Source of the DNA: an uncultured Acidobacteriota bacterium
Lineage (GTDB): Bacteria > Acidobacteriota > Thermoanaerobaculia > Gp7-AA8
Direction: 5' to 3'
Length of the DNA: 64,000 bases
Assembly (NCBI GenBank): GCA_963741955.1
Contig: CAVUKB010000005.1
Span: 672,001 to 736,000, forward strand
The notes under the pieces: generated by a model
Told to the model about the DNA's origin: nothing
Database searches by the model: none
The model's input: the letters and a program-made list of their open reading frames with translations, nothing else
Translations under genes and position numbers: made by a program
Part shown: one piece after another, positions 41,348-41,671 of the stretch
Position numbering within the stretch: position 1 is the stretch's first letter
Layout: the number at the start of each line of letters is the position of its first letter

Positions 41348-41377
41348 TTGACATCCCTCCCCCTCCTCCCCCATACT
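41348..41377 (+). promoter_or_regulatory. Sigma70-type promoter of the met leader
   Basis: TTGACA-18 nt-CATACT, ending 11 nt before the leader ATG. Confidence 0.7.
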
Positions 41378-41388
41378 CCCCCGCCAAC

Positions 41389-41460
41389 ATGAAACCGACG
41401 TTCGCCAGCTTCTCGATGTGTCCCATGTGTATGCGAGCCTGCTCCAGCGAGCGGGTGTAG
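41389..41460 (+). CDS. Putative leader peptide MKPTFASFSMCPMCMRACSSERV (Met/Cys control codons)
   Basis: ATG TGT CCC ATG TGT ATG CGA GCC TGC cluster, between a promoter and a terminator upstream of metY. Confidence 0.78.
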   Translation: MKPTFASFSMCPMCMRACSSERV

Positions 41461-41563
41461 CCGGACACGTCCCGACTCACCCGCCGCGCCAAGCCGGATG
41501 CGGTGAGTCGGTCTCCTGAAGCTCTTCCCCAACAAGTCGTCACGTTTCCTTTCGAGCTCGATT

Positions 41564-41609
41564 GAACGACCCCTCGCACCGGCGGCGCCGGTCGAGGGGT
41601 TTTTCGTTC
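41564..41609 (+). terminator. Intrinsic terminator in the met operon leader
   Basis: ACCCCTCG-C-ACCGGC-G-GC-GCCGGT-CGAGGGGT followed by TTTTCGTT. Confidence 0.85.
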
Positions 41610-41671
41610 ACCCAGGGTCACATCGAAAGCGAGACGGACGGCAACGAACAACGACAACCAGGAGAAGAGCC

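Follow-up and report, generated by a model that had tools for sequence, protein, structure and literature searches.

A 64,000-nucleotide (nt) stretch of DNA from an uncultured Acidobacteriota bacterium (Thermoanaerobaculia; Gp7-AA8; assembly GCA_963741955.1, contig CAVUKB010000005.1, positions 672,001 to 736,000), referred to here as the window, carries a leader region upstream of the genes metY-metX-hom. Our analysis indicates that this leader is probably a ribosome-mediated transcription attenuator of metY-metX-hom, which senses charged elongator tRNA-Met and tRNA-Cys by means of a short upstream open reading frame (uORF) rich in methionine (Met) and cysteine (Cys) codons. Such an attenuator had been proposed in a preliminary description of the stretch, and the proposal is supported in silico by searches of known RNA families, by conservation and by folding of the transcript with a masked ribosome; the response to Met or Cys itself is inferred. 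Three elements that characterize attenuators were found in silico, namely a codon-enriched leader ORF, an intrinsic terminator before the first gene and an antiterminator exclusive of this terminator. An attenuator would explain the 320-nt ‘empty’ intergenic region in the window.

Promoter and leader ORF

The leader begins with a sigma-70-type promoter at 41348-41377 on the forward strand, where all features described below are also located. TTGACA (41348-41353) and CATACT (41372-41377) are separated by an 18-nt spacer and match the consensus at 10 of 12 positions, and the -35 box begins 41 nt 5' of the uORF ATG. This pair was the sole promoter-like site that a promoter scanner found in 40900-42000, compared to 0.0 expected from shuffled sequences. 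The promoter is as claimed in the preliminary description, all coordinates of which hold. Reading of the sequence also bore out a 23-codon uORF at 41389-41460 (ATG at 41389, TAG at 41458-41460, peptide MKPTFASFSMCPMCMRACSSERV) without a Shine-Dalgarno (SD) sequence: a purine-rich SD is absent from the 14 nt preceding its ATG, while metY, by contrast, has AGGAGA at 41660-41665. Since the uORF starts 11 nt after the -10 box, its 5' untranslated region is probably only a few nt long, making the transcript near-leaderless.

Codons 10-18 of the uORF (41416-41442; ATG TGT CCC ATG TGT ATG CGA GCC TGC) encode the putative sensing run M-C-P-M-C-M-R-A-C. As previously described, six of these nine consecutive codons specify Met or Cys, and the Cys codons are TGT, TGT and TGC. 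Met and Cys together account for 2.56% of the codons in 809 long ORFs of the same genome, and at this frequency six or more Met/Cys codons in nine have a probability of about 2e-8 per nine-codon window. TGT is indeed uncommon in this genome, with a share of 22.5% of the Cys codons in the same long ORFs. Across 13 distinct uORFs of the lineage described below it makes up 24 of 44 Cys codons, these uORFs being related and not independent samples. The over-use of this rare codon fits a stalling sensor.

Genome-wide, 76 stop-to-stop frames in six frames reach at least five Met/Cys codons in nine, and nine among the 60 top-ranked frames listed reach at least six. Detailed inspection of 8 of the 76 frames gave no second attenuator-like Met/Cys frame; these eight were rejected as leaders, being coding regions read in another frame, stretches of low complexity or a repeated element. 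Among the frames inspected, the metY leader is the only attenuator-like Met/Cys-rich frame in the genome.

Absence of known RNA families

Rfam models applied at gathering thresholds to the whole window identified only a tRNA elsewhere and nothing on the leader. At E<=10 over 41150-41750 there were three chance-level matches to unrelated eukaryotic or metagenomic families. SAM-I, an S-adenosylmethionine (SAM) riboswitch, was not found in the whole genome by a search whose control matched in three known genomes, while genome searches for SAM-I/IV and for the S-adenosylhomocysteine (SAH) riboswitch carry no weight because the control genomes gave no match either. At these thresholds the leader matches no covariance model of the SAM or SAH riboswitch or T-box families. 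With no riboswitch or T-box match covering the leader, the reading put forward in the preliminary description withstands this comparison.

Predicted mutually exclusive pairings in the leader

Five pairings were modeled between the end of the uORF and metY. Hairpin P0 (GCCTGCTC / GAGCGGGT; 41437-41456) lies within the end of the uORF, with 41437-41444 pairing 41449-41456. It folds at -12.7 kcal/mol (z -2.4; 5 of 200 shuffles equally good) and is present in the minimum free energy (MFE) structure of the untranslated state, where it is predicted to sequester the sequence GCGGGTG, called segment 1 below, when no ribosome stalls on P0. Helix A (41447-41487) pairs GCGGGTG at 41451-41457 with CACCCGC at 41478-41484, plus flanking pairs, and excludes hairpin B (41472-41511), which is formed by CCGACTCACC (41472-41481) and GGTGAGTCGG (41502-41511). 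Competition between these two pairings had been claimed before, and folding finds both helices stable and nearly isoenergetic, with -24.8 kcal/mol for helix A (41445-41490; z -3.8) vs -26.2 kcal/mol for hairpin B (41468-41515; z -4.1). In our model hairpin B keeps its 3' portion, segment 3, off the terminator arm.

The preliminary description had left the antiterminator unplaced. The folding model places it between segment 3, whose antiterminator strand is 41488-41510, and the terminator 5' arm (segment 4), with 41568-41583 as the paired stretch. The duplex has a predicted energy of -21.1 kcal/mol (z -2.26), appears in the MFE structure with a ribosome on codons 10-15 and would be mutually exclusive with the terminator, as the two share the terminator 5' arm. 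The intrinsic terminator itself (41568-41604; segments 4 and 5) consists of a stem at 41570-41599 with one bulge, followed by TTTTT at 41600-41604. Folding of 41564-41609 gave -31.2 kcal/mol (z -5.1), and none of 200 shuffles was as good, confirming the strong U-tailed terminator reported earlier before metY. A simple terminator scanner reported 0 terminators over the leader because the stem has a one-base bulge. The SD of metY lies about 55 nt past the terminator and outside the alternative helices.

Conserved RNA core in the order of the window

Homologs of metY were identified at E<=1e-200 in 11 of 127 genomes of the order to which the window belongs; the other genomes must make homocysteine another way or import methionine. 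This patchy occurrence, together with 80-83% identity, could reflect transfer of the whole leader-metY-metX unit. All 11 of these metY-bearing genomes carry a conserved RNA core, of which metagenome contigs supplied four further copies, giving 15 lineage leaders. The metagenome pattern scan returned 64 stretches, among which five were true metY leaders (L317, L332, L341, L374 and L379, L341 being identical to L332 in the printed stretch); the other 59 proved on reading to be chance matches in coding regions and were dropped. In a pattern scan of genome contigs, the matches listed were chance ones in GC-rich genomes and were not used. In all 15 lineage leaders the -35 box is 40-43 nt from the ATG.

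The core, common to the 11 metY-bearing genomes, is a chain of alternately complementary arms. Segment 1 is GCGGGTG, at or just past the uORF stop; segment 2 is CACCCGC, within CCGACTCACC; segment 3 is GCGGTGAGTCGG plus its 5' flank; segment 4 is the terminator 5' arm; and segment 5 is the terminator 3' arm plus the T-run. Segments 1 and 2 form helix A, for which 96.2% of alignment cells are paired across 13 distinct sequences vs 36-61% when the arms are slid, with one compensatory change from G-C to A-U. For helix B (segments 2 and 3) 75.4% of cells are paired, far above slid controls; its inner 7 pairs are retained throughout, and 2 pairs show changes on both sides. The outer pairs of helix B are confined to the subgroup of the window, partly because MAFFT placed a one-base register shift on one side only. 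Cognate antiterminator duplexes range from -14.2 to -26.1 kcal/mol; in 14 of the 15 lineage leaders the cognate duplex beats at least 95% of shuffles. The terminator arm of the window is divergent, and its best partner among all 15 leaders is the window's own segment 3.

An equivalent of P0 is present in L024, and reading of L022, L023, L108 and L109 showed that another hairpin spans the stop codon there. Segment 3 and the terminator are joined by a linker of variable length and sequence. The distance from the uORF stop to the T-run is 115-195 nt in this order vs 46-87 nt in most other leaders of the class, the greater length being due to the extra hairpin B and the variable linker. Most of the other class leaders are of the classical four-segment design.

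Conservation in the class and in other phyla

A DNA search of relatives with 41200-41700 returned only tandem repeats 5' of the promoter plus one 63-nt match (in genome G012), and the leader is not BLAST-alignable outside the order. Because it cannot be aligned at the DNA level beyond close kin, we gathered metY orthologues by protein. In a first sample of seven metY orthologues, every one shows a promoter of the TTGACA type, a uORF that lacks an SD and contains a Met/Cys run, and a terminator before metY; the runs include SCMCMCMCIPC, PCMCTMRMCQLC and RMVMCMRPM. In a larger sample of the class, metY was found at E<=1e-150 in 117 of 401 genomes (G012 belongs to the first sample, not to these 117). 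The 93 upstream regions analyzed comprise 34 loci and 59 usable stretches out of 60, one being too short, while 25 further places, all from one genus in which the metY-like gene is only 56-58% identical, were left out.

We scored a uORF as an ATG-started ORF of 6-80 codons within 400 nt having at least four Met/Cys in nine codons. By this definition, 72 of the 93 class regions have a Met/Cys-rich uORF before metY vs 6 of 93 on the reverse complement. Among the 21 regions without one are all eight sampled from the divergent genus. Several uORF-negative regions carry weaker runs, e.g. AVCMCT, VMVMCG and MRMRMR, so the count of 72 is conservative. A terminator, scored as a T-run preceded by a hairpin with an energy of -12 kcal/mol or lower, was detected in 69 of the 72 uORF-bearing leaders, in 66 of them 3' of the uORF stop; by the same criterion one is also scored in 32 of the 93 reverse-strand controls and in 9 of the 21 regions without a uORF. 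A -35-like box, searched at offsets of 30-55 and counted without a shuffle control, is located 36-43 nt 5' of an in-frame ATG in 64 of the 72 leaders, with a mode of 38 (n=27). SD sequences were seen in none of the listed leaders.

Other phyla were represented by the 80 best metY loci of a cross-phylum scan, 79 of which had enough upstream sequence. A uORF was found in 28 of these 79 loci vs one on the reverse strand, and 20 also have a terminator after the uORF. Grouped by label, uORFs occur in Bacteroidota (20/40), Acidimicrobiia (3/5) and Gammaproteobacteria (3/5), and none was found in Cyanobacteria (0/9) or Rhodothermales/Balneolales (0/8). Flavihumibacter soli, Pedobacter segetis, Mucilaginibacter oryzae and Carboxylicivirga species are among the named carriers of a Met/Cys uORF upstream of metY. 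Conservation of a Met/Cys uORF with a terminator before metY, proposed as a check in the preliminary description, holds in relatives from the class and in other phyla. The leader peptides are alike only in Met/Cys richness. Their lengths range from 18 to 78 residues, the spacing of Cys varies, and their content spans Met-only (TMAMMMRMSMR), alternating (MCMCMC) and Cys-dominated (CCCCCC) runs. Since Met/Cys richness is kept without a shared peptide sequence, these comparisons argue for selection acting on codon content rather than on the peptide product.

A divergent metY-like gene (L186-L194) is 54-60% identical over a short N-terminal stretch and 56-58% over the full match. All nine sampled regions upstream of it lack a Met/Cys uORF; eight are from one genus, with many single-contig genomes, and one precedes a second copy in G337. 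This gene is presumably under different regulation. We also observed a second, Met-Arg mini-frame (MRMR..., DMRMRMRE) near the metY start, at about -100 in L025 and about -97 in L150, L153 and L155, placed 3' of the main leader or replacing it. This mini-frame could represent either an additional sensor or a remnant.

Ribosome-masked folding

For a nascent transcript that begins at the ATG and ends with the terminator 5' arm, we represented the ribosome by barring 27 nt around a given A-site codon from pairing, and calculated the probability that the terminator 5' arm is paired upstream. For the window this probability is 0.27 with no ribosome and 0.23 with a ribosome at the stop codon. It is 0.21-0.42 for codons 2-6, 0.80-0.85 for codons 7-17 and 0.23-0.27 for codons 18-24. 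Five of the six Met/Cys codons of the sensing run (10, 11, 13, 14 and 15) fall within the predicted ON window of codons 7-17. The MFE structure of the ON state combines helix A with the antiterminator, and that of the OFF state combines P0 and hairpin B with a free terminator arm. The switch expected from the preliminary description was thereby obtained for the window sequence, and L023 and L024 show the same pattern.

Proposed mechanism

In the mechanism that we propose, transcription would start a few nt before the uORF ATG. When Met and Cys are plentiful, the ribosome would reach the stop codon at 41458 and cover segment 1 (GCGGGTG); in an untranslated leader, segment 1 would be held in P0 instead. 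In both OFF cases hairpin B would form and leave the terminator arm free, the terminator at 41570-41604 would form, and transcription would end near 41604, about 70 nt 5' of metY. When Met or Cys is short, the ribosome would stall on the M-C-P-M-C-M run at 41416-41433 and cover or destabilize P0, allowing segment 1 to pair with CACCCGC as helix A once the latter is made. Helix A would free 41488-41510 for pairing with the terminator 5' arm, and RNA polymerase would read into metY-metX-hom.

Several points weigh against this mechanism. The evidence for the attenuator is wholly computational, and a look for RNA sequencing runs covering 41300-42300 found none. A short 5' leader on the mRNA is more probable than a truly leaderless start, and the model assumes that initiation is efficient without an SD. 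A shortage of Met would also lower the charging of initiator tRNA and so initiation on the uORF; because the untranslated state is OFF in this sequence, reduced initiation under Met shortage predicts termination. Covariation is thin, with one compensatory pair in A and two in B among 13 close sequences, and helices A and B therefore rest mostly on conservation. In masked folding, the 15 lineage leaders divide into three that are clear (the window, L023 and L024), three partial (L111, L112 and L317), one reversed (L379) and eight flat. Among 61 leaders of the class, stalling beats the stop codon by at least 0.2 in 14 when means are compared and in 18 when maxima are compared, with the opposite in one. 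Moreover, with the full terminator present the equilibrium always favors the terminator, and if the transcript ends ahead of segment 4 it is hairpin B that prevails every time, in neither case with any dependence on the ribosome. As the terminator always wins when complete and B always wins before segment 4, the switch has to be kinetic. In the model the decision must be made kinetically, since helix A can form before segment 3 is transcribed and equilibrium models cannot represent kinetics.

Alternative explanations

One alternative is that the same attenuator senses methionine only, the Cys codons resulting from an ATG-TGY-ATG pattern (self-complementary CATG/TGCA words) or from drift. In its favor, Met is always present in class leaders and Cys is absent or rare in some (TMAMMMRMSMR, SMNMRMRMR, AMAMVMRM), and the pathway encoded by the operon leads to homocysteine and methionine precursors, cysteine itself not being among its products. 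We nevertheless consider it unlikely, as many Bacteroidota metY leaders are dominated by Cys runs (CCCCCC, CMCCCCACCC), the rare TGT codon is over-used (24/44 vs 22.5%), and the best model for MetY is a bifunctional O-acetylhomoserine/O-acetylserine sulfhydrylase; both amino acids report sulfur supply. The conserved core could instead be an undescribed riboswitch or a protein-binding RNA (helices A and B, 41445-41515) that controls the terminator, with the uORF incidental or a second input; the core, GCGGGTGTAGC...CACCCGC...GCGGTGGAG, is highly conserved, loop bases included, in all 11 metY-bearing genomes of the order. This is quite unlikely given that Rfam at E<=10 gives only chance-level matches over the leader and that the core is confined to one order, whereas the uORF and terminator are found class-wide and across phyla with unrelated RNA and much shorter leaders. 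The variable linker between segment 3 and the terminator also speaks against such an element, and the conserved segments are accounted for as a chain of mutually complementary arms.

The uORF might also work by another route, either through translational or Rho-dependent polarity or because the terminated leader of about 220 nt is mainly a trans-acting small RNA. There are precedents for both, in mycobacterial Cys small ORFs (sORFs) described, in the accessible part of the report, as acting translationally and without a terminator (bioRxiv 10.1101/834739), and in attenuator RNAs, which can reportedly act in trans (bioRxiv 10.1101/606483). Yet the uORF is separated from metY by a strong canonical intrinsic terminator (z -5.1), kept in 69 of 72 leaders, and the metY SD, about 55 nt beyond it, does not take part in the alternative helices, which makes this route very improbable. 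A further alternative is a functional CxxC-type metal- or redox-active micropeptide, which the preliminary description had offered in its metal-binding form; the leader peptide of the window does contain MCPMC and RAC, and several relatives have CMC...RMC. This reading is highly improbable: neither sequence, length (18-78 aa) nor Cys spacing of the peptide is conserved, Cys is missing altogether from some relatives, and the runs of others consist purely of Cys or of Met. Conservation instead concerns codon content, placement relative to promoter and terminator, and the site before metY.

Comparison with known attenuators

Classical attenuators are those of trpL, hisL, thrL, leuL, ilvL and pheL of E. 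coli and Salmonella. The metY leader resembles them in its short codon-enriched leader ORF, in its mutually exclusive hairpins, in the terminator before the first gene and in a ribosome position that would pick the fold. Mixed specificity for Met and Cys parallels thrL (threonine and isoleucine) and ilvL. Unlike the classical cases, other amino acids would be sensed here, there is no SD, and the predicted 5' end is within a few nt of the start codon. Six segments interact here (P0, A, B, antiterminator and terminator) vs four in classical attenuators. No Rfam leader family is related to the metY leader by sequence. In summary of these comparisons, the mechanism is textbook and the specificity uncommon, and the RNA sequence in this lineage is not in Rfam. 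The leader also has a probably near-leaderless start and a predicted extra hairpin relay.

Regulation of methionine genes is usually taught in terms of SAM riboswitches, T-boxes and MetJ/MetR-type proteins. Methionine leader peptides have nevertheless been predicted before, in Campylobacter jejuni and Streptomyces lividans, with no mutational test in either case. In Campylobacter jejuni, MetL is a predicted methionine leader peptide of 20 aa, 3 of whose codons specify Met; it is located on a short, terminated RNA upstream of the homocysteine-synthesis operon metBA, with antitermination proposed to follow ribosome stalling (Porcelli et al. 2013, PMC3847290, as far as the accessible text goes). 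A translation-initiation-site (Ribo-seq) signal for MetL is given in the accessible part of Froschauer et al. 2025 (PMC11955535). Like the metY leader, MetL combines a Met leader peptide with a terminated RNA; within the accessible portions of these reports it is presented without a structure model or mutational test. The metL leader of Streptomyces lividans encodes a leaderless leader peptide ending in ...CMCRRMCAF and carries the annotation of an attenuator that depends on methionine (Droste et al. 2021, PMC8079986, accessible sections). It shares with the metY leader only the alternating Cys/Met motif (CMC..RMC). In the same sections, it precedes the importer genes metNIQ and not metY, has no typical Rho-independent terminator, and the authors are silent on its Cys codons (PMC8079986). 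We group MetL and metL with the metY leader by mode of action, not as relatives.

Cys leader peptides have been described in Actinobacteria (Seliverstov et al. 2005, PMC1262725), and mycobacterial polycysteine leaderless sORFs are characterized, in the accessible part of the preprint, by consecutive Cys codons, SD sequestration and the lack of a terminator (Canestrari et al., bioRxiv 10.1101/834739). The metY leader has in common with these a start at or near the 5' end, the lack of an SD and Cys codons that would report charged tRNA-Cys to sulfur genes. It differs from the mycobacterial type in having interleaved Met and Cys codons, a canonical terminator and an SD outside the helices. The uORFC-8-2 motif before cysS in Rhodobacterales contains a Cys-codon uORF (Brewer et al. 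2021, PMC8632094), and for Deinococcus deserti the accessible part of de Groot et al. 2014 proposes that leaderless leader peptides act as attenuators (PMC4007540). Like the metY leader, these systems have a Cys uORF with a U-tailed terminator, or leaderless leader peptides; unlike it, they control tRNA-synthetase genes and contain just two Cys codons, and their sequences are unrelated to it.

Met regulation has been compared across Proteobacteria in a study that, in its accessible part, gives no attenuator for metY and leaves metY of beta-proteobacteria without a regulator (PMC4239095). A ribosome-read Met/Cys sensor before metY would fill part of this gap. Our literature search, with subscription journals mostly outside its scope, found no systematic account, structural model or mutational test of mixed Met/Cys leaders before metY. 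Since the MetL and metL predictions are in print, the novelty is lower than was claimed in the preliminary description. How broadly the Met/Cys device occurs before metY does not appear to have been published so far. We lean slightly towards the broader view that the leader is a member of a very widespread, never systematically described class of Met/Cys dual-sensing leaders, which would be the main regulator of metY-metX in the class of the window, Bacteroidota, Gemmatimonadota, Acidimicrobiia and some Gammaproteobacteria, in place of SAM riboswitches, T-boxes and MetJ/MetR. This lineage would then be distinguished by its near-leaderless start and by a six-segment relay that is ON only if the ribosome is stalled in an 11-codon window. 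With such a device, annotators would have a simple signature by which to recognize an unannotated regulatory gene, and a compact part responsive to sulfur amino-acid supply would become available.

Downstream operon and flanking sequence

The gene order metY-metX-hom downstream of the leader, as given in the preliminary description, was confirmed with Pfam and NCBIfam. O-acetylhomoserine sulfhydrylase, metY, occupies 41660-42991 including its own SD (AGGAGA, 41660-41665), with the coding sequence at 41672-42991, and matches PF01053 (E 5e-135) and TIGR01326 (695.8 bits, cut-off 495.1). Its best NCBIfam model is the bifunctional O-acetylhomoserine/O-acetylserine sulfhydrylase subfamily. The homoserine O-acetyltransferase gene metX (42988-44076) matches NF001209 with 377.5 bits (cut-off 331), and the homoserine dehydrogenase gene hom (44073-45191) matches PF00742, PF03447 and NCBIfam. 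Stop and start codons overlap as ATGA at both the metY/metX and metX/hom junctions, and metX is next after metY in 34 of 35 loci. Among named metY records, those nearest to it share 81% identity and come from metagenome-assembled genomes labelled Thermoanaerobaculia and Acidimicrobiia.

Just 5' of the leader is a 643-aa ORF (39284-41215, forward strand) without a Pfam or NCBIfam match. Tandem arrays of TGTCGGACC (x5.7) and CTCGCCT (x4.4) occupy 41261-41343, directly 5' of the promoter. Similar arrays are dispersed, with 28 matches in this genome and, e.g., 32 in G001 and 28 in G025, mostly as matches of 25-60 nt.

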